From Spirochaetales bacterium (GTDB lineage: Bacteria > Spirochaetota > Spirochaetia > SZUA-6 > DRHE01), in assembly GCA_030615505.1 (NCBI GenBank), contig JAUWZD010000007.1:4702-68701 (forward strand): a stretch of 64,000 nt of DNA, read 5' to 3'. How positions within the stretch are numbered: position 1 is the first letter of the stretch; every line of letters begins with the position of its first letter. A model generated the notes under the pieces. It saw only the letters and a list, made by a program, of their open reading frames with translations. It had not been told where the DNA came from and ran no database searches. The position numbers were made by a program, and so were the translations under genes. Positions 6,642-45,892 of this stretch are shown here, piece by piece.

Positions 6642-6671
6642 CTCTACCGTACCTACCTTATGCCAAAACTC

Positions 6672-14959: not shown

Positions 14960-14979
14960 GATACCTTCTTCTGACCTCT

Positions 14980-15834: not shown

Positions 15835-15837
15835 TGA

Positions 15838-16398
15838 TTATTCCTCTCTTTCCAGTTGGCCTTTGGTCTTGTAGGCCTTCTCATACAGCTTCCGTATCTC
15901 TTCGATCCCCTCCATCTGCTTGGGTATGAACGGAATCTTTCCCTTAGCCATCAGTGTGAGTCCTGAGGGCATTGGTGAGAAAAGATCAAGAGTTCGGATC
16001 ATATACGCTACGAAGAAGGTGGCCTCGTGCAGCCGGCCCCACATCTTGATTGACCTCATGAACTCTTCATGTAACTGTACTACGTTCCTCTCGGCCTCGT
16101 AGGCGCAGCCTTCCTCTATAGATAACTCCCTGAGGGTGTCCATGACCGCGCTCATATCTACCTCGTTAGGGCATCTCGCCCCGCAGGTCATGCAGGATAC
16201 ACAGAGCCAGATAGCGTGGCTCTTTAATACCTTCTCTCTCTCCCCGTACTGGATCATGCGTATCAAGGCGTTGGGCTTAAACTCCATATAAGAGGAGAGC
16301 GGGCACCCCACAAAGCATTTTAAACACTGGTAGCAGGCTTCAATGTTTTGTCCGCTGCGCTCCCTTACTTCCTTGATGAAACTCCTGTCTCTTTTCAT
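15838..16398 (-). CDS. hdrC: Heterodisulfide reductase subunit C-like (2x[4Fe-4S])
   Basis: CYQCLKCFVGCP and CVSCMTCGARCP. 3-bp gap to hdrB. Confidence 0.8.
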   Translation of the reverse strand: MKRDRSFIKEVRERSGQNIEACYQCLKCFVGCPLSSYMEFKPNALIRMIQYGEREKVLKSHAIWLCVSCMTCGARCPNEVDMSAVMDTLRELSIEEGCAYEAERNVVQLHEEFMRSIKMWGRLHEATFFVAYMIRTLDLFSPMPSGLTLMAKGKIPFIPKQMEGIEEIRKLYEKAYKTKGQLEREE

Positions 16399-16401
16399 TC
16401 T

Positions 16402-19400: not shown

Positions 19401-19632
19401 CCACCAGACCTTCCTGCAAAGAGAAGGTACAGGCAGCCTTGAGCTGAGTGCGTGCCCGCTCCCCCACCTCTACCAGGCAGAGGCGGCAGGCGCCGTAGCT
19501 GGGTAAGCCTTTGCGATAGCAGAGAGTGGGTATCTTTATGCCCAACTCCTGGCAAGCCTCCAGGACGGTGCTGCCTGATTCCGTGCTCACCTGCCGGTCG
19601 TCGATTTTTAGGGTGATCTTACTCATAGGCAT
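16402..19632 (-). CDS. Fusion protein: NuoG/HydA-N-terminus-like [2Fe-2S]+[4Fe-4S] domain joined to an HdrL-like flavoprotein that lacks the N-terminal FAD-binding segment (1076 aa)
   Basis: N-terminus ITLKIDDRQV...CYRKGLPSYGACRLCLVEV (plant-type 2Fe-2S as in NuoG/HydA), then CILCGLCTRVC and CMACGACQVVCP. The HdrA body picks up at IPFPQALPNVPVIDREHCIHFLTGACKACEAFCP, which aligns to the HdrL region after residue ~130. FIQCVGSRD...CSSVCC, then a second FAD domain with MIQCVGSRE...CSRICC. Confidence 0.8.
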   Translation of the reverse strand: MPMSKITLKIDDRQVSTESGSTVLEACQELGIKIPTLCYRKGLPSYGACRLCLVEVGERARTQLKAACTFSLQEGLVVRTNSEKVQRTRRIMAELLLARCPDSEKVKEVAAELGVTDTRFPKKNEDCILCGLCTRVCSELMKTGAIDFSGRGDTRKVGPAYDKHSPICMACGACQVVCPTSTATVEDVATRQARPIASDYNAGLVSRPAIYIPFPQALPNVPVIDREHCIHFLTGACKACEAFCPAGAIDYSQEDEVVEIEVGAAILTPGYCIFEAGQKLELGYAWYPNVITSLQFERLLSASGPHGGKIVRPSDLKAPKRIAFIQCVGSRDAERNYCSSVCCMYATKEAIISMEHEEDLECNIFFMDLRAFGKGFDAYYERAKELGVIYTRCRPSSVEEIEQTRNLRIGYTDEDNHFVTREFDLVVLSTGLRPPAEVKELAKKFEVELDSNGFALTSMFNPVESSRPGVYVCGPFSEPKDIPETVMEASSASAKAMALLTEKRGTLVTQKEWPPERDVSGQRPRIGVFVCHCGVNIGGVVNVPEVREYAKTLADVVFAQDNLYTCSIDTQESIKKAIEEYNLNRVVVASCTPRTHEPLFRETVRDAGLNPYLFEMANIRDQCSWVHMHQPEEATRKSKDLVRMAVAKARLIEPLYSMPIPVKSGALVIGGGMGGMTAALNLAEQGFEVNIVEREEELGGNLKNVHYLLGAEDPQRQLGEMILKVNNHPNIRVWMGANIKSVDGFVGNFKTAITQDGKEAEIEHGAVIVATGARERMPDEYMYGSEERVVSQRELEEKLARGEFEAKRVVMIQCVGSREGDRMYCSRICCSQAIKNALKIKEDYPETDVFILYRELRTYGFRERYYTAAREKGVRFVRYDVDQKPLVSAANGRLRIETKDPILGSMLQIDSDLLVLAPAIVPQDDVEDIAKMLKTPLTKEKFFLEAHMKLRPVDFSVDGVFLAGMAHAPKNVEETITQAEAAASRAATIISKAEYTPEAIVCSVDEDVCAACGICVSVCSYDAPEIVTVRGKRVSKINAALCKGCGACASACPSGAVQQLGFRAKQLFEMVSAALE

Positions 19633-20081
19633 TCACCTTTTCTAGTGTCAAAGCGGGTAACATCTGTACCTCTCCTGTGCTCGTAGAGGAAATCGACCCC
19701 GCGATGCCCCGCCACCAGTGTCTCCAGGGTAGCGTAAGTGTCGCCCAGTGGTTTGCGGTCAGGATGGCTGCGGCGGAAGGTTGCCCTGATCCTCGTGCCG
19801 GCCTCCGGCCTGGAGGATATTTCAAACTTACCCTCTGCTTCCCTGGTTGCTTGAGCCAATAGTGCCAGGCCCAACCCGATTCTCTTTTCAGACTTTGTGG
19901 TAAAGAAGGGATTGGCTGCCTGGCGCATTGTCTCCGAATCCATACCCTTGCCGTCATCCTCGATCTGAAGGGTAAGCAGGTCATTTTCCAGGTCCTCGAC
20001 CAAAGAGATCCCGATCAGTTTTGCCTCAGCGCGGATCGAGTTCTCTACGATGTCCATAATATGAAACGATAGATCTTTCAT
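19623..20081 (-). CDS. GHKL-type ATPase (HATPase_c, anti-sigma regulatory factor-like)
   Basis: IEDDGKGMD...GLGLALL motifs; 152 aa with no kinase H-box. Confidence 0.6.
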   Translation of the reverse strand: MKDLSFHIMDIVENSIRAEAKLIGISLVEDLENDLLTLQIEDDGKGMDSETMRQAANPFFTTKSEKRIGLGLALLAQATREAEGKFEISSRPEAGTRIRATFRRSHPDRKPLGDTYATLETLVAGHRGVDFLYEHRRGTDVTRFDTRKGECL

Positions 20082-20797
20082 TGCCCTGTAATTATCCTCC
20101 GTCCCCCTGTTCGCCTGAGGGCCATCCCTATCTCCGCTGCTGTTCCATTCTCAACTAGAAAGCAAGTCTGCCTGGTACCGATCTCCCCGGGACGGTGAGC
20201 GTCCGAAGACCGAATCACAGGTGTATTTCCAGGCAGTGCAGGTAGTCTTTCGGAGCATACCTCCACCCCGTCCAGCTTCAGGTCCTCCGGGATGAATCCG
20301 AGCTGGCTGAGCACGCTGAAGCTAGGACGGTCCACATGAGATGCTATCGCCAGGCCATTGAACTCGTGGATAATCCGCACGACTTCATCCAGACTCAGAT
20401 CCGTGGCCCCGATCAACAGCTTCCGATTGCGGCGGATCACCCTGTCCTGTCCATCCATCACCAGTTGTTCACCGAAGATGCCGGGATCGTTCTCGCCCGG
20501 GAGATTGTCATAGATGACATCCTGAACCGCACTCAGAAGGCGGTCCTCCTGGAAGAGCCCCAGCACATGCACTTCCTCACGGGAGGTTATCTCCATACCT
20601 CCGATCACGGCCAGCCCAACCTTTTCTGCTGCTCGGACCACCGCCTGGACGTTCTCCGCTGAGTTGTGGTCACAGATCGCAATCAGATCCAATCCTTTCT
20701 CTCGAGCTTGCCTGGTCACCGTCAAAGGAGACATCTCCCTCTCTGCGCACGGTGAAAGGCAGGTATGTATATGCATATCAGCATGCAGTGCCCTCAC
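20078..20797 (-). CDS. PHP-domain phosphoesterase
   Basis: N-terminus ADMHIHTCLSPCA, then DLIAICDHN, the PHP metal-binding histidine/aspartate pattern. Confidence 0.7.
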   Translation of the reverse strand: MRALHADMHIHTCLSPCAEREMSPLTVTRQAREKGLDLIAICDHNSAENVQAVVRAAEKVGLAVIGGMEITSREEVHVLGLFQEDRLLSAVQDVIYDNLPGENDPGIFGEQLVMDGQDRVIRRNRKLLIGATDLSLDEVVRIIHEFNGLAIASHVDRPSFSVLSQLGFIPEDLKLDGVEVCSERLPALPGNTPVIRSSDAHRPGEIGTRQTCFLVENGTAAEIGMALRRTGGRRIITGQ

Positions 20798-21165
20798 TTC
20801 CTGATTCCGGACAGGCCCAGATTGTACAGCCGGCCTATCAGCTCGAAGGCCGGAAGGGCGCTGACCAGCAGCGGAATATTCTCTTCCCTGGCCTTCTGGA
20901 GGGTATCTGCTTCGGGCTCACGCCCGTTGACCAGGACTATTCCAGCCAACCCTTTCATGCTCGCTACGGCGACGGTGTTCTGGTGCGTTTGCAGAGTCAC
21001 CCACAGGTCCCCTTCCTCAGCGTTAGCTATCACATCGCTGATCAGATCGCTGGCGTATCCCCCCTGCACCTCGTTCGAGAGTGAACCATTGCCGGCCTTC
21101 ACTTCAAGCTTAAGCCTTTTTGTGATCTCACTCAGATCCATCTTCGTTCCCCACCAGAATCTCAA
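20794..21165 (-). CDS. DRTGG domain protein
   Basis: ASDLISDVIANAEEGDLWVTLQTHQNTVAVASMKGLAGIVLVNG matches the DRTGG domain pattern. Paralogous to 22074..22478. Confidence 0.6.
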   Translation of the reverse strand: MRFWWGTKMDLSEITKRLKLEVKAGNGSLSNEVQGGYASDLISDVIANAEEGDLWVTLQTHQNTVAVASMKGLAGIVLVNGREPEADTLQKAREENIPLLVSALPAFELIGRLYNLGLSGIRK

Positions 21166-22117
21166 CTTTTAGCCTCGTCCCTTTGCCTACAGTTGAGCTA
21201 AGGTTCATTCTGTCAGAACACTTCTGTATATTGTGAAGGCCCATTCCTGCACCAAATCCGAGCTCCCTCACCCACTCCGGGGCTGTGGAGAAGCCCGGCT
21301 TAAGGGCCTGATCGATATCCGGAATCCCGGGGCCATCATCCTCCACCTCGATCTGGATAATTTCAGGCTCGATCTTCGTCTTTATTTTTCCGCCATTGGT
21401 GAAAAATATTAGATTCATCTCCGCCTCGTAGGTGGCAATGGCGGCTCGGCGTGTGATCTGGGGGGATATTCCCAGCCGCAGAAGGGTGGTTTTTAGACCG
21501 CCGGCGCTGTTGCCTGCCCGGCTGAAATCCCCTCCGCTCACCTGGTACTCAAAGATCAGCGCGCTCTTGTCGGCAACTATATCCTCGAAGATATGGCTCG
21601 ACCTGGTGCTGTGTATCTCCGCCTGGCGGTAACCGATATCTAACTTTTTAAGCAGTCCCCCGATAATGTCGCCCTTGGTGATCACCCCGGTCAGCTTTCC
21701 GATCCCCCTGGCGAGTACCGGCAGTCGGCCGAAGCCGAACCGCTCAAGATTGTTGAACGCCTGGATGAGGGGTTCATCCTCAAAAACGCTGATGACCTTT
21801 CTGGTCATTCGATCAACTACGGCACAGTCAGGCCCACCGTCATATAGCCACCTGATGAAATCCTCCAGGCTGATGATACCTACCAATCGTCCTTCCTCGA
21901 CTACTGGTGTACCGGAGATGCGATTATCTCGCAAGACTGCCCGTAGATCGCTCATCTGGGTTGAAGGGATGACTTTGATAACCCCCCTCTTCATCACATC
22001 GCCGACCCGGAGCTCATAAACGAGCTCCTGAATCTTGGTTATTTCTCTTTCTATCAATGGGAGTTTACCCTCCTTATCTAGCCCCGACGGCCAGGCCCTT
22101 TGAGTACAGCCGGCCAC
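21128..22117 (-). CDS. CBS-pair plus GHKL ATPase domain protein
   Basis: Two CBS-like segments (VMKRGVIKVIPSTQMSDL...; VDRMTRKVISVFEDEPL...), then IEVEDDGPGIPD...GFGAGMGLHNIQ (HATPase_c). Confidence 0.7.
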   Translation of the reverse strand: MAGCTQRAWPSGLDKEGKLPLIEREITKIQELVYELRVGDVMKRGVIKVIPSTQMSDLRAVLRDNRISGTPVVEEGRLVGIISLEDFIRWLYDGGPDCAVVDRMTRKVISVFEDEPLIQAFNNLERFGFGRLPVLARGIGKLTGVITKGDIIGGLLKKLDIGYRQAEIHSTRSSHIFEDIVADKSALIFEYQVSGGDFSRAGNSAGGLKTTLLRLGISPQITRRAAIATYEAEMNLIFFTNGGKIKTKIEPEIIQIEVEDDGPGIPDIDQALKPGFSTAPEWVRELGFGAGMGLHNIQKCSDRMNLSSTVGKGTRLKVEILVGNEDGSE

Positions 22118-22478
22118 AAGATTCGTACATCAACAGTTGCGTAACGAACAGCGGCATCCCCTTCTCCTTAGCCAGCGTGATTGTTTCCGGCTGGGGTTTC
22201 TTACCACGGACGAAGCATATAGCGGTTAAATCCAATATTTCGGCCGTGCGTATCACCTGCGAATTGGTCAATCCGGTCAAGAGCAGAGAACCTGGAGTGC
22301 AGCAGGTCAGCATATCGCTTATGAGGTCGCTGGCGTGGCCTGAGCTGACCTCCTGGTCGCCGCAGTCGGTGTTCCAGACCAACTCCGCTTGGAGAACCTG
22401 CTGAACGTCTTGCAGCTTCACTGCACCGTTACCGCCTCGGACCTGCAAACGTCTCGGCAAACGCCGCACTTGATGCAC
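22074..22478 (-). CDS. DRTGG domain protein (start uncertain; ORF overlaps the NuoF-like gene by ~60 nt)
   Basis: HASDLISDMLTCCTPGSLLLTGLTNSQVIRTAEILDLTAICFVRG; paralog of 20794..21165. Confidence 0.55.
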   Translation of the reverse strand: MHQVRRLPRRLQVRGGNGAVKLQDVQQVLQAELVWNTDCGDQEVSSGHASDLISDMLTCCTPGSLLLTGLTNSQVIRTAEILDLTAICFVRGKKPQPETITLAKEKGMPLFVTQLLMYESCGRLYSKGLAVGAR

Positions 22479-24211
22479 TTCTCCTGATCAATGGTCTGCG
22501 GTTTCCCCTTCTCGCCCGAGATCGCCTGCTGCGGGCAATTCTTTACACAGAGCAGGCAGGCATTGCACTTCTCCGCATCGATGGTATACGTTATCAGAGC
22601 CCTGCAGACACCTGCCGGACAGCGCTGCTCATTGATATGCGTCTCGTACTCATCCTTGAAGTAACGCAAGGTGCTCAATACCGGGTTCGAAGCCGTAGCG
22701 CCCAACTGGCAAAGGGAGCCGTCCTTTACCGCCTGGCTCAATTCCTCGAGCAGCTGGATATCCCCCTGATTGCCCTTGCCATCGCAGATATCTGTAACGA
22801 TCCGATACATGGCATCCACTCCCTCGCGGCAGGCGGTGCACTTTCCGCAAGACTCGCTCCGCAAGAACTCGAGGAAGTATCTGGCCACATCGACCATGCA
22901 GTTATCCTCATCCATCACAATCATCCCGCCCGAGCCCATCATCGAGCCGACCTCGGTCAGGCGCTCGTAGTCTATCGGTAGGTCCAGGAGGGACGCCGGG
23001 ATACATCCACCTGAGGGTCCTCCCGTCTGCACAGCCTTGAAGGCCTTGCCGTTCTCCATCCCGCCGCCGATATCGAAGATGATCTCTCGCAGCGTGATAC
23101 CCATTGGGACCTCAACCAGGCCGGTGTTCCTCACCTTGCCAACCAGTGCGAAGACCTTGGTTCCCTTGCTGGTCTCCGTGCCGATCTGTGAGAACCACCC
23201 TGCTCCCCGCTTGATAATCTCGGGGACGATTGCCAGTGTCTCCACATTATTGAGAACCGTCGGCTTCTCCCATAGTCCTTTCTCGGTAGCGTGAACTTGC
23301 TTCGAGAACGGCTCCGGCGGATCTCCCTGAATCGAGGCTCTCAGGGCACTGGACTCACCGCAGACAAACGCCCCAGCGCCCCTGAACACGGATATATCAA
23401 AGTCAAATCCTGTCCCCAGAATGTCATGGCCCAGGAGGCCGTATTCCATGGCCTGCTTGATGGCCAGGTTCAGCCGTTGCAGTGCCAGGGGGTACTCCGT
23501 GCGGATGTAAATGTAGCCCTGGCCGGCGCCTACTGCCTTGCCTGCGATAGCCATACCTTCGAGTACGGAGTGAGGATCACTTTCTATTATGCTTCTATCC
23601 ATAAAAGCGCCGGGATCGCCTTCGTCGGCATTACATATGATATATTTTTCCTTGCTGTGATGACTTGCAGCTGATTCCCATTTCCTCCCGGTGGGGAAGC
23701 CGGCGCCCCCCCGCCCGCGGAGACCGGAATCCTTGACAGTCTGGATGATCTCCTGGCTGGTCATTGAGGTGAGGGCCCTGGCCAGCGCCCGGTAGCCTCC
23801 TCGGGCAATTGCTTCCTCGATCTTCTCAGGGTCGATCATTCCGCGATTGCGCAGGGCGATCAGCCGCTGCTTCTCGAAGAAATCAATCTCACTCATCTTC
23901 GGGACCGGCGCTTTCTCAAGCGAAGGAGTGTACATGAGCCGCTTGACCGGACGCCCTTTCAAGAAGTGCTCCTCGACCAGGTGGGGAATATCCTTCTCGG
24001 AAAGAAGCTGGTAAAAGATATTGTCCGGCTGGACGACCATTACCGGGCCCTGGGCGCAGAATCCGTTGCAGCCGGTCATGACAACGGCGATCTCATCCTG
24101 TAGCTCATGCTTTCCCAACTCCTGTTCAAGGTCGGCTTTAATCCGAAAGGACCCGTTCGAGACACAACCGGTTCCGGCACAGAGCATTAGATGCATCCGG
24201 GACTTTTTCAT
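22418..24211 (-). CDS. NuoF/HydB-like NADH-binding FMN flavoprotein with N-terminal thioredoxin-like [2Fe-2S] and C-terminal 2x[4Fe-4S] (bifurcating-hydrogenase beta-subunit type)
   Basis: GRGGAGFPTGRKWE (FMN/NADH site), ESCGKCTACREG (NuoF 4Fe-4S), N-terminus CAGTGC...CNGFCAQGP, C-terminus CNACLLCVKNCP / CIKCGVCRDVC. Confidence 0.9.
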   Translation of the reverse strand: MKKSRMHLMLCAGTGCVSNGSFRIKADLEQELGKHELQDEIAVVMTGCNGFCAQGPVMVVQPDNIFYQLLSEKDIPHLVEEHFLKGRPVKRLMYTPSLEKAPVPKMSEIDFFEKQRLIALRNRGMIDPEKIEEAIARGGYRALARALTSMTSQEIIQTVKDSGLRGRGGAGFPTGRKWESAASHHSKEKYIICNADEGDPGAFMDRSIIESDPHSVLEGMAIAGKAVGAGQGYIYIRTEYPLALQRLNLAIKQAMEYGLLGHDILGTGFDFDISVFRGAGAFVCGESSALRASIQGDPPEPFSKQVHATEKGLWEKPTVLNNVETLAIVPEIIKRGAGWFSQIGTETSKGTKVFALVGKVRNTGLVEVPMGITLREIIFDIGGGMENGKAFKAVQTGGPSGGCIPASLLDLPIDYERLTEVGSMMGSGGMIVMDEDNCMVDVARYFLEFLRSESCGKCTACREGVDAMYRIVTDICDGKGNQGDIQLLEELSQAVKDGSLCQLGATASNPVLSTLRYFKDEYETHINEQRCPAGVCRALITYTIDAEKCNACLLCVKNCPQQAISGEKGKPQTIDQEKCIKCGVCRDVCRSEAVTVQ

Positions 24212-26509: not shown

Positions 26510-27568
26510 AAAATGATTATCCGGTTCCCTAAGGTTCTTCCTTCAAAATAAAGAGATAGGATGCAACCATCCTGTAAGCTTACCTGAAGCATATAAATCC
26601 TCATAAGTTGGTCCACATTTTTGACTTGCCAATCCCAAGATTGTCTGGAAAGCTGCCATGGGAGTTCTTCGCCTATTATGTCGAAAGACAAACTCATTCA
26701 AGTATGCTTGCAAGTGCTTTCCACTTACTCCGTGATGTGTGCCTTCGAGCCAAACCTTCAAATTGCCTATGGTGCGGTGAATGTGCTCAAGTTCCTTAAT
26801 ACTAACAACTTCATGTATATAGCCTGCCTTATTCAAACCGTCATAACCAGACCAATCATCTGTATAAACTAACGAACCAGGTTCTACATTGCCTTCAACA
26901 AATCCAATAAGAGTTTCACCTGAAACATCAGGGATAACATTTAACCTTAGACGCCCAACACGTTTCTTCTTTGTTGGTTCATCGATAACTTCTATCGCAC
27001 CAGCAACAATTGTTTTTCCTGACACTCCACGACCTCGTTTTCCCGCTTTTGAGGCCCCAATATATGTTTCGTCGACTTCTATAACACTGTGGATTCTATC
27101 ACGATCTGGACGTACCATCGCTGCACGGAGCTTGTGCAGAATTTGATAAGCTGTTTCATATCGATTTATGCTAAGCTGTTTCTGGAACTGAAGAGCTGAA
27201 AAACCTGGTGTATGAGTGGCAACAAGATAAGCACCCCAGAACCATATCACTAATGAAGTTCTTGTACCATGCATGACAGTTCCTGCCGTAATGCTAGTTT
27301 GATTCCCACATTCCGAACATTCAAGTCTACGATAGGTTTCTATATTGTAAGGATCAGCATTAATCTTACATTTAGGGCAAATAAACCCATTGGGCCAACG
27401 GCATTTATAAAGGTAGTCTATGCAAGTTTTTTCGTCAGGAAACCAATGTTGAAATTCAAGGAGTGTTTTCGGAAATGGAATTTTACCTCGCTCATGTCCA
27501 TTCTTGATTTTTTGCACAAATATTATGCTACTTCAGATCACTTCCTTAGTAAACCGGATAATCATTTT
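26510..27568. mobile_element. IS1595-family insertion sequence (ISXO2-like transposase) with ~25-bp imperfect terminal inverted repeats
   Basis: IRs aaaatgattatccggttccctaagg (26510..26534) and ccttagtaaaccggataatcatttt (27544..27568), 2 mismatches. A single transposase ORF lies inside. Confidence 0.75.
26543..27517 (-). CDS. IS1595-family (ISXO2-like) transposase with N-terminal zinc-ribbon
   Basis: CIDYLYKCRWPNGFICPKCK...CSECGNQTSITAGTVMHG (zinc ribbon), then DETYIG...TDDWSGY...YLNEFVFRHNRR, the ISXO2-like DDE domain. Confidence 0.85.
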   Translation of the reverse strand: MQKIKNGHERGKIPFPKTLLEFQHWFPDEKTCIDYLYKCRWPNGFICPKCKINADPYNIETYRRLECSECGNQTSITAGTVMHGTRTSLVIWFWGAYLVATHTPGFSALQFQKQLSINRYETAYQILHKLRAAMVRPDRDRIHSVIEVDETYIGASKAGKRGRGVSGKTIVAGAIEVIDEPTKKKRVGRLRLNVIPDVSGETLIGFVEGNVEPGSLVYTDDWSGYDGLNKAGYIHEVVSIKELEHIHRTIGNLKVWLEGTHHGVSGKHLQAYLNEFVFRHNRRRTPMAAFQTILGLASQKCGPTYEDLYASGKLTGWLHPISLF

Positions 27569-30666: not shown

Positions 30667-30984
30667 TCAAAAAGGTTCTAAAAATAACAACATCTTGCCT
30701 CCGCAGACATCTCCATTCCGAGTGCCTAGATCGTCTGTAAGATCTACTTCTATTAGTTCGGTGGTTTTAGTAGTGATAATACAGCGAAGTGCGGCAGTCC
30801 GGACATTGTCCTCTCCACATCCCCCTCCTACGGATCCATACAAAGTACCATCGACACAGACAATCATCTTAGCTCCTTGCTCCCGTGGAGTGGAACCGAT
30901 GGTTTCAACGATGGTAGCAAGACAAACAGCTACTCCGCGATTTCGAAGCTCTGCAAGTTTGCGAAAGATTTCTTGATCGGTCAT
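30667..30984 (-). CDS. XdhC/CoxI N-terminal-domain-only protein (105 aa)
   Basis: VCLATIVETIGSTPREQGAKMIVCVDGTLYGSVGGGCGEDNV...DVCGGKMLLFLEPF. 4-bp overlap with the upstream xdhC. Confidence 0.7.
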   Translation of the reverse strand: MTDQEIFRKLAELRNRGVAVCLATIVETIGSTPREQGAKMIVCVDGTLYGSVGGGCGEDNVRTAALRCIITTKTTELIEVDLTDDLGTRNGDVCGGKMLLFLEPF

Positions 30985-31748
30985 TTGCTACCTCCAACCG
31001 CTGTTCTCAAAGCTAGCACTCCTGCCGAACCCTTCCTGCGTATGCAAACAAGCTCAGCCACGATGGAGATGGCAATCTCAGCAGGCGATTCGGCCCCGAT
31101 TGGAAGCCCAATCGGAGTAAAGACTTCTTTCAGACGATCTTGAGGTATACCCTCTTGAGCTAATATGTCTAAAACAAAGCGAATCCTTCGGCGGCTTCCG
31201 ATAAGTCCAACGTAAGCAGTTTCATTGCGCAATATCTCAACAAGACACTCTATGTCATGCTCATGGCCACGCGTTATCACGACAACATAGGTGGATGGGC
31301 TGAGGGGCATATCACGCAAGGCTTCTGTGAAGTCCTCCGCAATCACCTTACAATCAGGAAAGAGAGACGTGTGAGCAAACTCAGATCGATCATCGAGCAC
31401 AGTAACACTAAATCCAACTTGGCGGGCAAAGCGCGTTAGGTGTAAGGCTATATGACCTGCGCCGCATACCAGAAGCTTCGCATCAGCTGAAAGAACATCG
31501 ATAAAGACTCTTACTCCGTGAGCAATTTCAACAATGCGTTTCTTCTTCTCTTTGAGAGCCTCCAGAGCCGGATCACACAAAGTCATTCTCAACTGCTTCG
31601 ACTCAATTTCTCCCTCCATCGATCCATCCCTCAATATAATCACTTTCCGACCAGATGGGACATCCGAGCGGTGAGAGGCTACGATAGTGGCAAGACAAAA
31701 AGTTTCCCCTTTTTCCAGAAGTTCATTAACTCTATCAATAAGCTCCAT
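30981..31748 (-). CDS. xdhC: XdhC family protein (molybdenum-cofactor insertion/sulfuration accessory; XdhC_CoxI plus Rossmann XdhC_C)
   Basis: FCLATIVASHRSDVPSGRKVIIL...KLLVCGAGHIALHLTRFARQVGFSVTVLDDR...ITRGHEHD. Confidence 0.8.
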   Translation of the reverse strand: MELIDRVNELLEKGETFCLATIVASHRSDVPSGRKVIILRDGSMEGEIESKQLRMTLCDPALEALKEKKKRIVEIAHGVRVFIDVLSADAKLLVCGAGHIALHLTRFARQVGFSVTVLDDRSEFAHTSLFPDCKVIAEDFTEALRDMPLSPSTYVVVITRGHEHDIECLVEILRNETAYVGLIGSRRRIRFVLDILAQEGIPQDRLKEVFTPIGLPIGAESPAEIAISIVAELVCIRRKGSAGVLALRTAVGGSK

Positions 31749-31866: not shown

Positions 31867-32916
31867 TCAGCCCTTAAAGCTTATCCCTCTGCCCTCTTTG
31901 ACCTCGCCAATGATCCAGCAGGGATGTCCCCGCCGCTCGAATAATTCGAACAGCCGATCCAGCTTATTAGGCCTTACGGAAGAGAGTAGCCCCCCCGATG
32001 TTTCCGGGGTAAAAAGCATCAACTGCTCTTTTTTGCCTATGGAGGCTTCAAAACGAACCTTCCCGACGTAACAGTTCCTGTTACGGAACGTACCGCCTGG
32101 AAACAGATTCTTTTCTGCATACTCCCGGGCACCCTCCAAAAAGGGAATCTTTTGCATAAATAAAGAGAGCTGCACATTACTATTATCAGCCATCTCCAGG
32201 CCGTGGCCCATCAGGGAAAACCCGCTAACATCCGTACAGGCCTGCACACCGACTTCCTGAAAGATGCGGGCGGCCTGGCGGTTCAGTTTTTTCATACTGG
32301 CAACTGAAGCGGAGATCTCCGGCTCACTGGCGATTTCCATTTTTAAAGCCGTAGTGGTAATACCAGTGCCCAGAGGCTTGGTGAGAACCATCAGATCCCC
32401 CGGACGGGCATTCGCCTTCTTCAGGATCCGATGCGGATTTGCCAGACCTGTAACGGCCAATCCGTATTTAAGCTCCTTATCTATTAGCGTGTGTCCCCCG
32501 GCCAGGACGCCTCCGGCTTCAGCCACCTTATCAGCACCACCGCGCAGGATATTTTCCATGGTCTCTGAGGACAGATCTTCGGGAAAGCAGCAGACATTCA
32601 GGGCCAGGGTAACCTCACCGCCCATGGCATAGACATCGCTTAGAGAATTGGCAGCCGCGATTGCGCCGAAGTCGTATGGATCGTTTACAATGGGCGGGAA
32701 AAAGTCTATGGTCTGGATCAGTGCACACTCTTCACTGATCTTATACACCGCCGCATCATCGCTGACCGCCAGTCCTACTAAAAGATTGGGGTATTGATCC
32801 GGATTAAAATAACTCTTTAAAAGGCGCAGGACCTGCGCCAGGGTCTCAGGACCCATCTTGGCCGCTCACCCAGCCGCAGAAGATAAAGCTGTAAGCGGAA
32901 TAGTTCGCTCAGCCAA
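31867..32916 (-). CDS. selD: Selenophosphate synthetase SelD, selenoprotein form: TTG start at 32916, in-frame UGA (Sec) at 32868..32866
   Basis: The ORF track starts at ATG 32856, but in-frame upstream translation gives (L/M)AERTIPLTALSSAAG-U-AAKMGPETLAQVLRLL. This matches the SelD N-terminal motif (E. coli ...[25 protein letters not shown]) with TGA at the catalytic Cys/Sec position. GGAGG RBS 6 nt upstream of the TTG. Downstream DAAVY...DFFPPIVNDPYDFGAIAAANSLSDVYAMGG is the AIR-synthase-like fold. Confidence 0.8.
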
Positions 32917-33196
32917 CTGCTTACCTCCAATCCCTTTATTAATCCATGGTGATTCTTTCACAAACTTGTTCCAATTTCAAGCAGGTGCGTTCCCAAGGTA
33001 AATCAGATAGTTGTTTTTGGTTTGATTCGTTTTCGACAGGTAGCCTATTACTATGCCCAGAATTAGGGCAGCTTCAAGAATTTCCCTCAGCATAATTATG
33101 TAACTGGACAGCACAATTTTTCTCCTGTAGTCTGATCAGGTTATAGGTAGCATCCCGCGCATGAGTCCTCCATATGGCTCCGCGGCTCTTCTCAGC

Positions 33197-33532
33197 TTAC
33201 CTATCACGAGGATCATTCAGTTTGCAACAGTCAAGCTTTTTGCCTCCAAACTGCTTCCTGTTATTCTCGGCCATTCGGCCAAGAAAGCGCTCAAGAGGAC
33301 TCTTTTTCTTCTCAACAGCAGCAGTAATACAGCAGCCTGAATCGATAATCTCTTCTTTGATGCAATCGATAGACAGAATCCGCCGGCAGTATTCGATCCT
33401 GATGCCGCTTTCCTGGAGGGCGACGTTATTCACACCCTCCATTTTCATCAACCTTTCATAGAAAGCGGAAGCCGCCTCCTGTGATGGACGATCTTCTAAA
33501 GGAATCACAGATACTGATAAGTACTCTTCCAT
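33197..33532 (-). CDS. Hypothetical Cys-rich small protein (GCC and DCC motifs), next to copZ
   Basis: 111-aa ORF with SGCCITAA and LDCCKLNDP; no recognisable family. Confidence 0.35.
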   Translation of the reverse strand: MEEYLSVSVIPLEDRPSQEAASAFYERLMKMEGVNNVALQESGIRIEYCRRILSIDCIKEEIIDSGCCITAAVEKKKSPLERFLGRMAENNRKQFGGKKLDCCKLNDPRDR

Positions 33533-33603
33533 AAATATCTCCTCTTTTCGGGTAGGCGAAGAGGAAGTAGAGGTGTGAGCTCCCTCTGCGCAGTGAATCA
33601 GAT

Positions 33604-33813
33604 TCAGGAGACTCGATAGCCCTGAGCCTCTATGGTTTCTTTGATCTGGGGTAACCCGACCTGGCTCTCATCGTAGCGAACGGCAACCGATTTTCCTTCC
33701 AGGTCTACCTCGACGTTCGTAACTCCCTGTAAGGCATCCACTGCCTTTTCCACCGTCATCTTGCAGTGGTTGCAGGTCATGCCTTCCACTGTAAGCTTGT
33801 TTTCTATAGCCAT
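33604..33813 (-). CDS. copZ: Heavy-metal-associated (HMA) domain copper chaperone CopZ-like
   Basis: LTVEGMTCNHCKMTVEKAV, the GMTCxxC motif in a 69-aa protein. Confidence 0.85.
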   Translation of the reverse strand: MAIENKLTVEGMTCNHCKMTVEKAVDALQGVTNVEVDLEGKSVAVRYDESQVGLPQIKETIEAQGYRVS

Positions 33814-33840
33814 CTTTTTCTCCTTCTTTTGGTTTGACGT

Positions 33841-34074
33841 TTAATTTCCTTTAGCTATAAATCGTTTCAGACTCAGTGAGTTTGAAACCACCGATACAGA
33901 GCTGAACGACATGGCAGCTCCTGCAATGATCGGGCTCAGCAATCCTACCGCGGCAACTGAAATGCCCACGGCGTTGTAGAAGAATGCCCAGAAGAGGTTC
34001 TGCCGGATCTTGGTCATGATCTTTCGTGAAAGCTGTAAAACTGCCCCTATCGTACGCAGATCACCTTTCATCAA
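33841..34074 (-). pseudogene. C-terminal fragment (~77 aa) of a heavy-metal P-type ATPase (CopA-like); the rest of the gene is absent
   Basis: [49 protein letters not shown] matches the last two TM helices of CopA-type ATPases. The upstream gene is unrelated (a kinase 23 bp away). Confidence 0.7.
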
Positions 34075-37086: not shown

Positions 37087-37290
37087 TAAAAAGGGACTGC
37101 CCAGAGCAAAGGGATTATCTTTTCTGCCGCTTAAGGCATCCAAGGGACCGCGTATGATATCCAGGATCAAGATATTATAACATAAATAACTGACAATCAT
37201 TCCAACCACGACAGCCACAAGGCAGAATATTATCCTCATCCTCAACTCACCGAGGTGCTCAAGTAATGATTTTTTTTCGTCTTTCAAAAC
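37087..37290. repeat. Direct repeat copy B (~205 bp): duplicated tatC 5' end encoding an 82-aa truncated TatC N-terminus (ORF 37039..37287, TTG start), abutting the selB stop
   Basis: About 94% identical to 26221..26425. Encodes MKDEKKSLLEHLGELRMRIIFCLVAVVVGMIVSYLCYNILILDIIRGPLDALSGRKDNPFALGSPFL versus TatC MIDEEKSLLEHLGELRMRIIFCLVAVVIGMIVSYLCYDILILDIIRGPLDALSGKKDNPFALGSPFL. Confidence 0.85.
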
Positions 37291-39242
37291 AAGTCTCCTG
37301 CTTTGAGTGCTGCAATTCCTTTCTCCGTTATCAGGCGAAGATCTCCTGATCGTTGGGTAACACCCTCACTATCATATATAGCTAGTAATAACAGGCATAT
37401 TTTCCTGTTACCTTTAACAAGGTTACGAAACTCTGCCACTGTCATACCCTCTTTCCGGCAGGCAAGAGCCTTCAGCAACATCTTTCTGCATCGATCTACT
37501 AAAGAGGCATGGAGGTAACTATCATCTATAAAATAGACCTCCTTCTTTTCAACAAGATAGCGCAGGATATTGTTCAGCCCCTTTTCATCAATATCCTGGC
37601 TTTTCGCGGCAAGAATAAGTTCGGACATAAGGGGGGCCTTCATTTTGCAACTCTTCAGAAAATTTGCTACAAAACTTATCTGGCGATTCAATTCCTGCTC
37701 AATGTCTACTGAGTGATTATTTAGTGCCCAGGTATGTTCAACCTGTTTCAACTTCCCCTCCGCTTCCAGTTTATTAAGTAAAAGATGTAGAAAAACTTCT
37801 GCCGGGCAATCACGATCTATCCTCAATATGCCCATAAGTTCTTCGGTTGTACGTCCTCTCTTAACAAGCGGGTTTCTTCTGTGAAAGGAAGCAATATTTT
37901 TCAACAGCTGTTCCTCTAATCTATCGCATTCTCTCTTTACAATTAGATAGATATTGTCGCCGTAAGTAGAGCAGAATAGATCTTCCGGCAACGAGTTGGA
38001 AACTACTGCGTGCACCTGGTTGGGTGAGACATTCAGTAGATCAGCGATCTCCCTGTGTGTAACCACGCTTAAGCGCTTTCTTACTTCCAAAGCAACAAGT
38101 TCCTGGAGTTTTCCTTCAGCAATCCTGGTCATGCTTTCAATCAATTTTCCAGAACGCCGGCGGTGAAGCAGAGGGAATGTATCAATTACCACACCTCCCC
38201 CAAGAGTTATATCACTCGATGTATTCCGGATTACGAACCTATCACCCCATTGGACATTGAGGGGGTCTTCCAGATGTATCTGAACAAGGGCAGTGTTTCC
38301 CCCGGTTAACCTATCACAATCAATCAAGTGGACTCTTGCCTGTTGTTCATATGTACCAAGATGAAAAATCACCAGGTTCCATAATTTAGTGAAACTGCGA
38401 TTATGATGAAAGAGACGCAGTCTGGCATCCAGCATTTTAGTATGACGAAGAATACGGTCTGAGATGATCATACCTCTTTTAAAATCCTGGCGGGTAAGAC
38501 CTACAAGGTTTATTGCTGCCCTGTCACCAGCAACTACCTCTTCATCTTCTTTTCCGAAGCATTCAATCCGCCTCACTCGCAGCTTCTTTTCTCCAGGTAA
38601 TAGGTAAGCCGTATCACCCACACGCAGGGTACCGCCTATCACTGAGCCGGTGACAACCGTTCCAAAGCCCCTCACACTGAAGATCCGGTCAATAAACATC
38701 CTGAAAATCTCACCCACTGGTCTATCAGTAATTCGTGATGCTACCTGGTTAATACATTCCCTTAACTGATCAAGACCATCACCATTGATTGCAGAAACTT
38801 TTACAATCGGGCAATTCTCCAGAAAGGTTCCGGAAACAAGTCCTTTTATCTCATCCTCGGCCAAGTCGACAATCTCAGGTTCAACCAGATCAATTTTCGT
38901 TATTGCCACAAGTCCACTTCGTACGCCCAGTACGTCCATAATCTGAAGGTGCTCATGTGTTTGGGGCATCACACCACTATCTGCCGCAACAACCATCAGG
39001 GCAAAATCCAAACCACATGCACCTCCAACCATTGTATGGACAAAATCGCGATGACCTGGAACGTCTATAATGCCGATTATGTCACCAGAAGAAAGAGCTA
39101 AATACGCAAAACCCAGATTTATTGTTATCCCGCGCTTCTTCTCCTCCTGGTGAGTGTCACAGTCAATTCCTGTCAACGACTTTATTAACGCCGTTTTCCC
39201 ATGGTCAATATGGCCTGCGGTACCCATAATAAGGTGTTTCAA
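37284..39242 (-). CDS. selB: Selenocysteine-specific elongation factor SelB
   Basis: MGTAGHIDHGKTALIKSLTGIDCD...ITINLGF...DVPGH (EF-Tu-like G domain), then winged-helix C-terminal domains; 652 aa. Confidence 0.9.
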   Translation of the reverse strand: MKHLIMGTAGHIDHGKTALIKSLTGIDCDTHQEEKKRGITINLGFAYLALSSGDIIGIIDVPGHRDFVHTMVGGACGLDFALMVVAADSGVMPQTHEHLQIMDVLGVRSGLVAITKIDLVEPEIVDLAEDEIKGLVSGTFLENCPIVKVSAINGDGLDQLRECINQVASRITDRPVGEIFRMFIDRIFSVRGFGTVVTGSVIGGTLRVGDTAYLLPGEKKLRVRRIECFGKEDEEVVAGDRAAINLVGLTRQDFKRGMIISDRILRHTKMLDARLRLFHHNRSFTKLWNLVIFHLGTYEQQARVHLIDCDRLTGGNTALVQIHLEDPLNVQWGDRFVIRNTSSDITLGGGVVIDTFPLLHRRRSGKLIESMTRIAEGKLQELVALEVRKRLSVVTHREIADLLNVSPNQVHAVVSNSLPEDLFCSTYGDNIYLIVKRECDRLEEQLLKNIASFHRRNPLVKRGRTTEELMGILRIDRDCPAEVFLHLLLNKLEAEGKLKQVEHTWALNNHSVDIEQELNRQISFVANFLKSCKMKAPLMSELILAAKSQDIDEKGLNNILRYLVEKKEVYFIDDSYLHASLVDRCRKMLLKALACRKEGMTVAEFRNLVKGNRKICLLLLAIYDSEGVTQRSGDLRLITEKGIAALKAGDLF

Positions 39243-39291: not shown

Positions 39292-40716
39292 TTAGCCCAG
39301 AGATTTAATCGATTCCGAGATTGAATGAGCTATATATTCAATATCTTCCTCAAATACAGTCAATACATCAAAAACAATCTTACCTTCGCGCAACACCCCA
39401 ACAATGGGACGTTCAAGGCTAAGGAGTCTCTTAAAAATTTGCTCGGCAAAGCTCAACTCATGCTCACCTTCTCTATTCTGCGGCAAAACTTCTACCGCGG
39501 CACTCTTAAGTCTAACAGCAGGTAATGTTCCGCCACCGCATTGGCCCTCGCTTGCATTCAGCCGGGCAGAGATTTCAAGGCTTGATAGTTCTTCAAGAAG
39601 TCTTGAAGCAATGGATTTCAGTTCCCCCTGACTCCTATCCAAAATGGCAAAAGTCGGGCAGGAAGAGGAGAGTTTTTTATCATCGAGATATTGCCTGCAC
39701 ACACTTGAAAGAGCTGTGAGTGTTAATTTTCCAACCCGTACAGCCCTCATAATTGGAGAACGGCTGAGACGCGAGATCAATAAAGCTTTGCCTGCAGCAA
39801 TTCCTGCCTGCGGACCGCCTAAGAGTTTATCGCAACTAAATGTCACAATGTCAGCGCCGGATGCTATCGCACTGCGGACATCCGGTTCATTCTGTAGAAG
39901 TATTCCCTTTAGCTTACTGAGAAGTCCTGAACCAATATCATACACCATTGGCAAATTATGCGTATGTGCCAGATGCGATAAATCTTTTACCGAGACTTCT
40001 TCAGTGAAGCCGGTTATTGTGAAGTTGGATCTATGGGCTTTGAAGAGTAATGCTGTTCGTGGAGTAATCGCTTCCTCGTAGTCAGAAAGACGAGTCTTGT
40101 TCGTTGTTCCAACCTCGACCATATGGACACCACTGGCTTCAATGATCTCTGGAATACGAAATGAGCCGCCAATTTCTATCAGTTCCCCTCTTGAAATAAT
40201 TACTTCACGATCGCGGGCCAGGGTATTGAGGACAAGGACTATAGCTGCGGCATTGTTGTTAACAACCACAGCATCTTCTGCCGAGGTTAGGAATTTCAGT
40301 ATCTCAACAACATGCTTGTTCCTGCTGCTGCGACAGGCATACTTAAGGTCATACTCTAAATTAGAATAGCCTTTAGCAACCTGTGATATATCATTTATGA
40401 CTTCCTGCCCCAGAGGTGCTCGACCAAGATTCGTGTGAAGCACCACTCCGGTTGCATTAATCACCGGCTTAAGTGACTGTCCTGAGATGCAGCTCACCAG
40501 GTCCTCAATATCTGAAATAATGAGCTCCATTGTGCAGGTGTTTTTACCATCCAGGATACTATCTCTGAGGCGCTTTATCACTTTGCGGGTGGCATAGGTT
40601 ATAAGCTCACGGCTGTTTTTATTAATCAATCCCCTTATAATGGGATTGTTTAACACCAGGTTAACGCTGGGTAAACTTCTTAAGTTTTTATTCTCAGGCT
40701 TAATGTTACTGGTCAT
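39292..40716 (-). CDS. selA: L-seryl-tRNA(Sec) selenium transferase SelA
   Basis: VINATGVVLHTNLGRAPL signature; PLP-fold region ...IVTFSCDKLLGGPQAGI. Confidence 0.9.
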   Translation of the reverse strand: MTSNIKPENKNLRSLPSVNLVLNNPIIRGLINKNSRELITYATRKVIKRLRDSILDGKNTCTMELIISDIEDLVSCISGQSLKPVINATGVVLHTNLGRAPLGQEVINDISQVAKGYSNLEYDLKYACRSSRNKHVVEILKFLTSAEDAVVVNNNAAAIVLVLNTLARDREVIISRGELIEIGGSFRIPEIIEASGVHMVEVGTTNKTRLSDYEEAITPRTALLFKAHRSNFTITGFTEEVSVKDLSHLAHTHNLPMVYDIGSGLLSKLKGILLQNEPDVRSAIASGADIVTFSCDKLLGGPQAGIAAGKALLISRLSRSPIMRAVRVGKLTLTALSSVCRQYLDDKKLSSSCPTFAILDRSQGELKSIASRLLEELSSLEISARLNASEGQCGGGTLPAVRLKSAAVEVLPQNREGEHELSFAEQIFKRLLSLERPIVGVLREGKIVFDVLTVFEEDIEYIAHSISESIKSLG

Positions 40717-40740: not shown

Positions 40741-40834
40741 ACAGAGAGGGCAGGAATCGAACCTGCCGCGGAGGGTTTTATCCGCCCGCTACTGGTTTTG
40801 AAGACCAGCCGGAACACCAGTTCCATCCTCTCTA
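40741..40834 (-). tRNA. selC: tRNA-Sec (selC), anticodon UCA, ~94 nt, long variable arm; ends approximate
   Basis: Minus strand reads tagagagg-at-ggaactggtgttcc-g-gctggtCTTCAAAaccagt-agcgggcggataaaaccctccgcgg-caggttcgattcctgc-cctctctg. Anticodon loop cTTCAAAa (TCA) with a 6-bp anticodon stem, 4-nt D-loop, long extra arm and TTCGATT T-loop. 25 bp upstream of the selA start. Confidence 0.75.
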
Positions 40835-44087: not shown

Positions 44088-45014
44088 CTATATTTTTAAA
44101 GCCCCGGCGATTATATAGCTGCAAGACAGGAGGAGTCCACTCATAAGATGGATAGCTATAGTCCTGCTCATAGCAGGTATCAATTTTCTTCCTGCTTTGT
44201 AGTTAATCCTTGCCAATCTGGCTGCTTTCCAGGCCAGGGGAACGGTAAATAGAGCCATAAGGCTCATCCAGGGGATTATTCCTAATAAAATTGCTAATAT
44301 TATAACCAGGAAAGTAAAAATCAACAGGAGATAAAAGCCTTTAATTGCCCTTTCCGGTCCCATTCGGACAATGAGTGTATCTTTCTTTGCTGCTTTATCG
44401 CAAATATAGTCCGGGAATTGGTTGATATAAAGGATAGCTGTTATCAGGAGACCCACCGGTATGGAGATAACCAATGCTTCTAAACTAAAGCTTTGTGTCT
44501 GAACATAGTAGGAACCCGATAACACCAGGGGGCCGCAGTTTAGACCTGCCAGGAACTCACCCCAGCCCCGATATCCAATTCTTATTGGTGATGCGGTATA
44601 GAAATATCCGGATAAAACTCCTATGATGCCAATTATTAATATCGCCCAGCCGCGAGCATAGCTTAGATATAAGCCAATCAAAATGGCCAGAGCGAAAAAG
44701 AATATTGCAGCCAGGTAAATCTTCTCTTGTGATATGAGTCCTTCCTGGATTACACGGCTGCCTCCGCTAAAGGGGGTGAATTCTTTATTAATATCATCAG
44801 CACGACTCTTATGATCAAAGTAGTCATTGGCCAGATTCGTTCCTGCATTTACAAATACAACAGCCAGGATGGTTAACAAAAAGTACCCAGAATAAAATAT
44901 ACCGGTTCTGTACCAGGCAATTGCCGCTCCCAAGACTGTTGGTACTATTACTGCTTGAAAGAATGGCGCACGAAGTGCCTTTATCCACAATTTTAATGAT
45001 GATAATAGATCCAT
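44088..45014 (-). CDS. UbiA-superfamily prenyltransferase (MenA-like 1,4-dihydroxy-2-naphthoate prenyltransferase candidate)
   Basis: NLANDYFDHKSRADD (NDxxDxxxD-type motif), 8-9 TM helices, 308 aa. Confidence 0.65.
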   Translation of the reverse strand: MDLLSSLKLWIKALRAPFFQAVIVPTVLGAAIAWYRTGIFYSGYFLLTILAVVFVNAGTNLANDYFDHKSRADDINKEFTPFSGGSRVIQEGLISQEKIYLAAIFFFALAILIGLYLSYARGWAILIIGIIGVLSGYFYTASPIRIGYRGWGEFLAGLNCGPLVLSGSYYVQTQSFSLEALVISIPVGLLITAILYINQFPDYICDKAAKKDTLIVRMGPERAIKGFYLLLIFTFLVIILAILLGIIPWMSLMALFTVPLAWKAARLARINYKAGRKLIPAMSRTIAIHLMSGLLLSCSYIIAGALKI

Positions 45015-45892
45015 TATGCCTGTTCTGTCCTGAATAAAGAAATATCCCCTCCCCGGAATCCTTCCTTATCTGCAACAATATCCAGGGCTAAGGTAGATAA
45101 GGTCTCAACAAACAGGTTCATGATATTGTCCATCCTGCGAGAATCTATTGTCTTAATGTATCTTTTGCATTTATCGCACACATCTATTCTATGTGCTTCA
45201 TCACCTTCTGCAAAGAAGTACCTCAAAGATTCCTGATCATCGTTTTCACAGAAAGGGCAGACCAGTCTCTTAAACAACCACTCGGTATGGCATAGCGGAC
45301 AGAACAGCCATCTTCTACCTGTTTCTTCCTCTAATCTAGCTATCAGGGACTCTCTGCCGCAGATGGGGCAATACCCCCTGAGCCAGTTATTTGAGTCAGC
45401 AATTTCTGCTAACTTTTCAGCGTAGCTTGCAATAAAAGGAGATAAAGCCTGATTGACAAGAAAATAGAATATAGTGTAATCAATCTCCAAATCACCGGCT
45501 AAGCTCTCCAGGACTGATCCATCCTCCATAAGGCCTTTAATAAGCAGCCTATGCTGCTCAGCCAGAGAGGAGCTGTTAAAGGTTGCAGGTATTGCTTCTT
45601 CCCTCTTATTTCGAAGAATCTGGTGGATGTCCCTTAAGATTTTATCAAGAAGATGCGGGTCTATTTTGATATCTTCAGGACTTAAGAGAGGGATACCTTT
45701 TGAATTTCTGCTGCGGAATAAGTCATTGTTAGAAACACTCAAATCAGGTTGAAAGGATGATTGAACCTTCTTTTGAGCATTGAACGTGCATTCATAAAAT
45801 TCGAGAATCTCCTTTAATTCCGGCTTTACGGTCTTTAACTCAGCAATCTGAACCAGAGCTAAGCTATAAAAATCTTCCTCTGTCTTCTCCAA
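45014..45892 (-). CDS. fdhE: Formate dehydrogenase accessory protein FdhE-like
   Basis: CPICGRE...CPLCHTEW...CPFCEN...CDKCKRYIK, the four CxxC pairs characteristic of FdhE. Confidence 0.75.
   Translation of the reverse strand: MEKTEEDFYSLALVQIAELKTVKPELKEILEFYECTFNAQKKVQSSFQPDLSVSNNDLFRSRNSKGIPLLSPEDIKIDPHLLDKILRDIHQILRNKREEAIPATFNSSSLAEQHRLLIKGLMEDGSVLESLAGDLEIDYTIFYFLVNQALSPFIASYAEKLAEIADSNNWLRGYCPICGRESLIARLEEETGRRWLFCPLCHTEWLFKRLVCPFCENDDQESLRYFFAEGDEAHRIDVCDKCKRYIKTIDSRRMDNIMNLFVETLSTLALDIVADKEGFRGGDISLFRTEQA

Follow-up and report, generated by a model that had tools for sequence, protein, structure and literature searches.

The 64,000-nucleotide stretch of Spirochaetales DNA analysed here (the window) very probably encodes a selenocysteine-type selenophosphate synthetase, selD, whose in-frame UGA is read as selenocysteine (Sec) with the help of a SECIS element located downstream. 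The full-length coding sequence (31867–32916, minus strand) has 349 codons, starting with TTG and ending with TGA, and the in-frame UGA is codon 17. The main value of the result is the correction of an annotation, as the only form of the protein returned from the public protein collection that we searched is a 329-amino acid product (P0001) starting at Met21.

Gene structure and identity of SelD

The mechanically called ORF (31867–32856, minus strand) is likewise 329 amino acids in length and begins MGPETLAQ. Its ATG (32854–32856, minus strand) is the start taken by default callers and encodes Met21, an internal codon of the real gene. In-frame translation upstream of this ORF reads …GIGGKQ-L-AERTIPLTALSSAAG-stop-AAK-MGPETL, in which the stop is the UGA at 32866–32868 (minus strand). 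This codon is located within the motif G-U-A-A-K and aligns with Cys17 of Escherichia coli SelD.

Initiation at the TTG (32914–32916, minus strand) makes Sec residue 17, in agreement with homologues. The N-termini of homologous SelD proteins extend 5–7 residues ahead of an (I/V)(R/K)LT motif, as in the Sec17 example L002 (MTREEIRLTAMTTAAG-U). Residue 7 of the protein encoded here is proline; 72 of 80 sequences have arginine or lysine at this position. The TTG at 32916 is the only position in the start region with a strong Shine-Dalgarno sequence, a GGAGG (32924–32928, minus strand) that is separated from it by a 7-nt spacer (TAAGCAG) in a direct reading of the sequence. One alternative in-frame start occurs below the upstream stop, a GTG 15 codons above the TTG, and no Shine-Dalgarno sequence was seen before this GTG. 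A weak Shine-Dalgarno-like sequence, GGUGAG, is present 8 nt 5' of the ATG at 32854–32856. The promoter scan gave one minus-strand sigma-70-like site (32980–32952), a count equal to chance expectation, and no terminator was found.

An earlier, sequence-only reading of the window had proposed that the ORF beginning at ATG 32856 lacks the N-terminal loop of SelD, that translation starts instead at TTG 32916, and that the product is a selenoprotein of ~37 kDa. We recovered the same ORF and found the catalytic column upstream of it, and both the length of the N-terminus relative to homologues and the sole strong Shine-Dalgarno sequence bear out the TTG. The GGAGG is present as described, although the gap to the TTG is 7 nt rather than the 6 nt given. 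The predicted mass of the 349 residues, including Sec, is 37.65 kDa, in agreement with the earlier figure.

The predicted product is SelD (selenide,water dikinase). With U written as C for profile scoring, it matched the SelD models TIGR00476 (367.9 bits, cut-off 125) and NF002098 (318 bits, cut-off 299), the former from residue 8 onward and thus from upstream of the TGA. Among solved structures, the best match was Aquifex SelD (2yye, E = 3.5e-68), and E. coli SelD (3u0o, E = 1.3e-62) was co-linear over residues 1–344, the alignment running from end to end across 3u0o residues 1–339. Alignment of the segment maertipltalssaagCaaKmgpetl with the N-terminus of E. coli SelD puts the TGA on Cys17 and retains Lys20, two residues that are needed for the activity of the E. 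coli enzyme. The G-[U/C]-x-x-K loop is present as AAG-U-AAK, the equivalents being GAG-C-GCK in E. coli (C17 and K20) and SSG-C-AAK in Aquifex. These alignments, with E. coli residues 1–20 and with Aquifex …SSGCAAKVGP, together with the TIGR00476 match, uphold the earlier assignment of the upstream stretch to the SelD N-terminus. Residues D54, D71, N90, D94, and D229 align with E. coli D51, D68, N87, D91, and D227, which we take to be the Asp/Asn ligands of the AIRS-type ATP/metal site, and all five are invariant in an alignment of 34 sequences. The nearest sequences, mostly from Anaerolineae/Chloroflexota metagenome-assembled genomes, are 63–65% identical at the protein level. The predicted SelD is fairly divergent, sharing 65% identity at most with any sequence found.

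The catalytic codon was compared across 80 related selD loci, collected in a scan of one genome per species, and the G-[U/C]-x-x-K column was located in 79 of these. TGA occupies the column in 64 of the 79 loci, and TGC or TGT in the other 15. Such alternation between Sec and Cys at a catalytic column is a standard signature of a true selenoprotein gene, and here it agrees with the earlier placement of the TGA at the Cys17/Sec position. Genes with TGA were found in Chloroflexota/Anaerolineae (the closest, at no more than 63% identity), Spirochaetales, Chitinivibrionales, Photobacterium, Pirellulaceae, Rokubacteria, and many Clostridia. TGA is an ordinary stop elsewhere in the window, ending selB, an XdhC-family gene (30981–31748), a NuoF-like ORF (22418–24211), and selD itself, so recoding must be local to the selD site.

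Truncation at Met21 is a systematic error for this clade. Nearly all of the best 120 homologues are 328–335 amino acids in length and cover 90–94% of the query, and each of the 33 close homologues that were aligned (33/33) begins at the same Met21. A default call had been expected to truncate selD, and the stored 329-amino acid P0001 and its 33 identically cut relatives are in accord with this. The stored protein lacks the catalytic loop and would be taken for an inactive or odd SelD.

Hairpins downstream of the UGA

The mRNA past the UGA is predicted to fold into two adjacent hairpins. Hairpin 1, GGGUC-CUGA-GACCC (32841–32854, minus strand), spans nt 15–28 as counted from the U of the UGA and thus lies between the UGA and hairpin 2. 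Hairpin 2, GGCGCAG-GUC-CUGCGCC (32823–32839, minus strand), spans nt 30–46 and has a GUC loop at 32832–32830. Its stem begins 26 nt after the UGA, and its apical loop follows after 33 nt (nt 4–36 lying between). The minimum free energy (MFE) of hairpin 2 is -12.5 kcal/mol (nt 28–48). Hairpin 2 is the 7-bp hairpin that the sequence-only reading had put forward as a SECIS, and the hairpin itself held up; the distance of about 20 nt from the UGA was too low.

The bacterial SECIS (bSECIS) model of Zhang and Gladyshev, as quoted in the Fig. 2 legend of PMC13188914, has an apical loop of 3–9 nt on an upper stem of 4–16 bp, a G in the first two loop positions that is usually followed by G or U, a distance of 16–37 nt from the UGA to the apical loop, and an MFE of -7.5 kcal/mol or lower. 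Hairpin 2 agrees with this model in 4 of 4 respects, having a 3-nt loop on a 7-bp stem, G then U in the loop, a 33-nt spacing (inside the range and close to its upper end), and an MFE of -12.5 kcal/mol. Hairpin 1 was rejected as the SECIS, as its CUGA loop breaks the loop rule of the same model.

Hairpin 2 is more stable than its coding sequence would lead one to expect. Its stem codons specify L-A-Q, V for the loop, and L-R-P, and include GCG, the rarest Ala codon (31 of 225 in the seven window ORFs tallied). Among 5000 synonymous recodings drawn from window codon usage, 0.18% reach -12.5 kcal/mol and 0.66% keep all seven pairs. The corresponding value for hairpin 1, which begins exactly 11 nt after the UGA and is present in both the MFE and centroid structures, is marginal (3.8%). 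The stability of the hairpin region is significant only when protein-coding constraint is controlled through such synonymous-codon randomisation; relative to dinucleotide shuffles, the 69 nt after the UGA are not more stable (z = -0.84).

Both hairpins are maintained in relatives. Across 65 Sec-type sequences, the 60 nt that begin at the UGA gave an ungapped alignment, in which 84% of cells are paired for hairpin 2, with both-side changes at seven of seven pairs. For hairpin 1, 59% of cells are paired in a fixed register, and compensatory changes occur at five of five pairs. Taken together, the two stems (15–19/24–28 and 30–36/40–46) have 73.6% of cells paired, versus 33–49% when the 3' partners are slid by 1–3 columns. 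The two-hairpin covariation score was reached by none of 500 column shuffles (0/500), these covariation counts being not fully controlled for phylogenetic non-independence. Both hairpins are present in 43 of the 65 Sec-type loci.

Covariation extends to synonymous changes. Where residues 12 and 14 are Gln and Leu, the codon combinations are CAG:CUG (32 cases), CAA:UUG (7), and CAG:UUG (4). The sole non-pairing combination, CAA:CUG, which would place A opposite C, is never seen (0 cases). The loop is conserved as well, with GU at the loop columns of hairpin 2 in 56 of the 65 Sec-type loci and in 51 of the 51 relatives that fold this hairpin.

The hairpins also distinguish Sec-type from Cys-type genes. 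At the same columns, the mean number of hairpin 2 pairs is 5.9 of 7 in Sec-type and 3.7 of 7 in Cys-type sequences, and the mean local folding energies are -8.6 versus -2.9 kcal/mol (p = 2.9e-6). Hairpin 1 behaves similarly (mean -6.4 versus -2.4 kcal/mol, p = 1.6e-6). These results support hairpin 2 as the putative SECIS proper, kept in Sec-type relatives and largely absent from Cys-type ones. The agreement with the published bSECIS model, the covariation at every pair, and the Sec-type specificity thus favour the earlier proposal for this hairpin.

General RNA searches did not report a SECIS. At gathering thresholds, Rfam identified only tRNA-Sec in the whole window and no SECIS family, and a permissive scan of 32700–32960 returned two chance-level matches (E = 2.2 and 7.8), neither to a SECIS family. 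RNAalifold found no consensus pairs in the 65 Sec-type sequences, because the set is very diverse and includes a Clostridium group without hairpin 2.

Hairpin 1 may be an accessory or spacer stem that fills the extra distance between the UGA and hairpin 2. A bolder version of this idea, which we regard as rather unlikely, is that hairpin 1 acts as a folded spacer bringing hairpin 2 to the ribosomal mRNA entrance. Sec insertion and SelD output would then need the two-hairpin fold, and the fold might itself be tuned, for example by selenium supply via SelB occupancy, such that the Sec pathway as a whole would come under feed-forward control. The enrichment of both hairpins in Sec-type genes and the 43 of 65 loci with both are compatible with a folded spacer.

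Probable selenocysteine decoding of the UGA

The genes of the Sec pathway are located near selD and on the same strand. These are selB, the Sec-specific elongation factor (37284–39242, minus strand; TIGR00475, 348.3 bits, cut-off 242; Pfam GTP_EFTU, Beta-barrel_SelB, and WHD_3rd_SelB); selA, selenocysteine synthase (39292–40716, minus strand; TIGR00474, 525.4 bits, cut-off 268); and selC, tRNA-Sec with anticodon UCA (40741–40834, minus strand; found by ARAGORN and by Rfam RF01852 at 70 bits, gathering score 47). They lie 4.4–8 kb from selD (6.4 kb for selA), all four genes falling within 9 kb, which matches the earlier statement that the pathway is encoded a few kb away.

A scan for TGA-interrupted ORFs identified a second Sec gene, fdhA, encoding the alpha subunit of a periplasmic formate dehydrogenase (47737–50844, minus strand). 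Its UGA at 50268 occurs in HQARI-U-HSATV and is spanned by a TIGR01553 match of 1287.7 bits. Given this second gene, the organism would clearly be making use of Sec decoding. A further TGA, at 6674 between HdrA-like and MvhD-like ORFs, was set aside as a Sec candidate; no downstream structure accompanies it (-4.4 kcal/mol), and in-frame Val codons, a possible GTG start, follow. A link of the downstream XdhC-like genes to a YqeB-type selenium-dependent molybdenum hydroxylase was also set aside, as only generic XdhC-family models matched, both below their cut-offs.

The UGA could in principle be a genuine stop, with the protein starting at ATG 32856 as a 329-amino acid SelD without the N-terminal loop, and with the 16 upstream codons either untranslated or yielding a free 16-residue peptide. 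Such a product agrees with the mechanically called ORF and with the public gene calls, as well as with the weak GGUGAG 8 nt before the ATG. We consider it very improbable, since the upstream codons are conserved as a SelD N-terminus across which SelD models align, and in 15 relatives a Cys codon at this column keeps the frame open. Furthermore, the hairpin is maintained by compensatory and synonymous changes in TGA-bearing genes only, and the shortened product would be without Sec/Cys17 and Lys20, which E. coli SelD requires.

Slightly less probable still is a mainly selenium-independent read-through of the UGA, by insertion of Cys or Trp or by Cys-tRNA(Sec), such that the enzyme has Cys or Trp and the hairpins are read-through enhancers. 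This could offer a way out of the bootstrap problem that arises when SelD requires selenophosphate for its own synthesis, and UGA-adjacent stem-loops can promote such read-through in eukaryotic SPS genes (PMC4561486). Against it stand the GU that the bSECIS model requires in the loop, retained in 51 of the 51 relatives folding hairpin 2, and a window that also encodes selA, selB, selC, and a Sec-type fdhA. Sec-independent read-through is possible as a minor contribution when selenium is scarce.

An error of sequencing or assembly, or recent inactivation of a Cys codon to leave a pseudogene, is comparably hard to credit: TGA is one base from TGC or TGT and the contig is metagenomic, but the selD sequence, TGA included, is identical in the Logan assembly of run SRR14872670 (not fully independent of the NCBI assembly if that run supplied the same reads to both), 64 relatives have TGA at the same column, the gene is intact with no further defect across its 349 codons, and it is accompanied by a matching SECIS and by the Sec machinery.

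We thus favour the reading of the UGA as Sec. Gene structure, homology, the conserved TGA, the conservation and covariation of the hairpins, and the presence of selA, selB, and selC come directly from the analysis; what we infer in addition is that Sec is in fact inserted and that SelB binds hairpin 2, along with any function of hairpin 1 and any autoregulation. Translation would initiate at TTG 32916, and the ribosome would reach the UGA at codon 17 with the two hairpins folded ahead of it, the second (nt 30–46, loop GUC) serving as the bacterial SECIS. SelB·GTP·Sec-tRNA(Sec) would presumably bind hairpin 2 and deliver Sec at the UGA, where release factor 2 would otherwise act. The predicted product, of 349 residues and 37.7 kDa, would have a flexible N-terminal glycine-rich loop, AAG-U-AAK, containing the catalytic Sec and Lys. 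Closure of this Sec17/Lys20 loop over the ATP site would lead to the formation of selenophosphate, with which SelA would charge tRNA(Sec).

Because SelA would make Sec-tRNA(Sec) from the selenophosphate of SelD, full-length SelD would depend on its own product. Such autocatalytic dependence, long a subject of discussion, follows logically from how the gene is built. Priming of the loop might come from inherited enzyme, from low-level Sec-independent read-through, or from a second selD elsewhere in the genome. Correctly called, the gene identifies the organism as one that uses Sec, that has two selenoproteins or more encoded in the window (SelD and FdhA), and whose whole Sec pathway hinges on a selenoprotein.

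Comparison with known SelD and SECIS systems

A Sec-type selD is the normal condition in many anaerobes, with descriptions going back to the 1990s–2000s. In every Sec-decoding bacterial genome examined in PMC1794560, at least one of FdhA and SelD was found, these being the most widespread bacterial selenoproteins, with SelD described as the second most widespread. The Sec and Cys forms of SelD have been mapped across prokaryotes and their bSECIS elements described (PMC4561486). As in the bacterial Sec-type SelD proteins of Deltaproteobacteria, Clostridia, and Pasteurellales (PMC1794560, PMC4561486), the UGA here is at the catalytic N-terminal position and the putative SECIS is in the coding sequence right after it, and selA, selB, selC, and a Sec-type fdhA co-occur. 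This SelD differs from the catalogued Sec-type proteins in being 63–65% identical to its nearest relatives and in having Pro rather than Arg/Lys at residue 7.

According to supplement S6 of PMC4561486, SelD bSECIS elements can have two stems and a minimal apical loop of 3–4 nt, stem2 being downstream of stem1 in Clostridiales. The tandem stems seen here, with a short apical loop on the second, have the same arrangement. As tandem stems are already described for SelD in that supplement, the two-hairpin architecture is not new. The predicted gene shows every feature of SelD, of a bacterial selenoprotein gene, and of a bSECIS that was tested; it is an expected find in an anaerobe with selABC and a Sec-type fdhA and implies no new biology. 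The 65-sequence SECIS alignment, with its synonymous covariation, may be of use in training or testing programs that predict bacterial SECIS elements.

Among structurally characterized proteins, SelD from Aquifex aeolicus (2yye/2zod) has an N-terminal loop, S-S-G-C-A-A-K-V-G-P, that is nearly identical to the S-A-A-G-U-A-A-K-M-G-P found here. However, the crystallised Aquifex chain has Cys at the catalytic position and is about 345 residues in length, and the two proteins share a family without being close kin. The truncated Aquifex structure 2zau (311 amino acids) matches the predicted SelD from residue 49 on; its loop is absent, as in the miscalled ORF, with the cut made deeper. E. coli SelD (3u0o) is co-linear with the protein encoded here, Cys17 aligning with U17 and Lys20 with K20, and the Asp/Asn ligands for metal and ATP are conserved. 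It differs in being a Cys-type enzyme whose gene has neither UGA nor SECIS, and its synthesis is independent of the Sec pathway.

The reference bacterial SECIS is that of E. coli fdhF (GGUUGCAGGUCUGCACC), in which SelB recognises the G and U of the loop. The apex of hairpin 2, GCAGGUC(C)UGC (GCAGGUCCUGC), is nearly the same as the fdhF apex (GCAGGUCUGC), with G and U exposed in the loop. The loop of hairpin 2 is at nt 37–39 from the U of the UGA, ~15 nt farther than in fdhF (nt 22–25). Unlike in fdhF, the additional length is taken up by a separate 14-nt hairpin, and the stem of hairpin 2 has no bulged U.

Sec codons and gene calls

Truncation of Sec-type SelD at the N-terminus looks systematic in the public gene calls for its clade, as judged from the lengths and start positions of homologues. 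Nearly all of the best 120 database homologues of the SelD encoded in the window (31867–32916, minus strand) are 328–335 amino acids in length, and all 33 of the 33 aligned SelD homologues start at the Met located right after U-A-A-K (Sec17 to Lys20).

The second selenoprotein gene is fdhA (47737–50844, minus strand), whose product, 1035 residues long, is the Tat-exported alpha subunit of a formate dehydrogenase. The in-frame UGA of fdhA (TGA at 50268–50266, minus strand) lies within the classic motif HQARI-U-HSATV, and the match to TIGR01553 spans this UGA (1287.7 bits). A stem-loop 3' of the UGA has an energy of -18.9 kcal/mol over 66 nt. Under default ORF calling, fdhA would come out as two separate fragments, one of 192 codons and one of 842. 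The fdhE gene is located at 45014–45892.

An HdrA-like ORF (1009 codons) and an MvhD-like ORF (154 codons) share one frame at 6207–9701 (minus strand), with a single TGA (6674) between them. A Sec site at this TGA was set aside, as no hairpin was found after it (-4.4 kcal/mol) and in-frame Val codons usable as a GTG start are present. The most probable reading is that this TGA is a normal stop codon separating two genes, and not a Sec codon.

Genomic surroundings of selD

Immediately downstream of selD are two overlapping XdhC-family genes on the minus strand. The 255-amino acid product of the first (30981–31748) aligns with the C-terminal part of NF045664, and the 105-amino acid product of the second (30667–30984) with its N-terminal part, both scoring below the family cut-off. 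This pair is predicted to be a split, permuted XdhC-family maturation factor. No YqeB/YqeC-type match tying the pair to selenium-dependent molybdenum hydroxylases was found.

Upstream of selD is a small metal-handling cluster (33197–34074, minus strand), composed of a putative metal-binding protein with an LDCC motif (33197–33532), a CopZ-type copper chaperone (33604–33813), and a 77-amino acid ORF (33841–34074). The last of these matches only the final ~70 residues of copper P-type ATPases and is apparently a gene remnant.

The G+C content is 54–56% over positions 12001–24000, as compared to 40–47% across most of the remainder of the window. Near the edge of the high-G+C stretch is a transposase-like ORF (26543–27517), judged by eye to be a putative IS1595-like transposase.

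Variation in SelD and its proposed SECIS

Residue 7 of the window SelD is Pro (IPLT; 32896–32898, minus strand), which occurs in no other sequence among the 80 compared; Arg (53 sequences) and Lys (19) predominate, giving the motif (I/V)(R/K)LT. Hairpin 2, the proposed SECIS, is wholly missing from seven Sec-type selD loci of the Clostridium group (L048, L056, L057, L059, L063, L071, and L072), where its energy is 0 to -2 kcal/mol within the first 60 nt past the TGA. The sole hairpin kept in these loci is at nt 15–29, and its loop (GGA or CCGGAGA) contains G. This combination suggests that a different SECIS class may occur within the selD gene family, in the Clostridium group.
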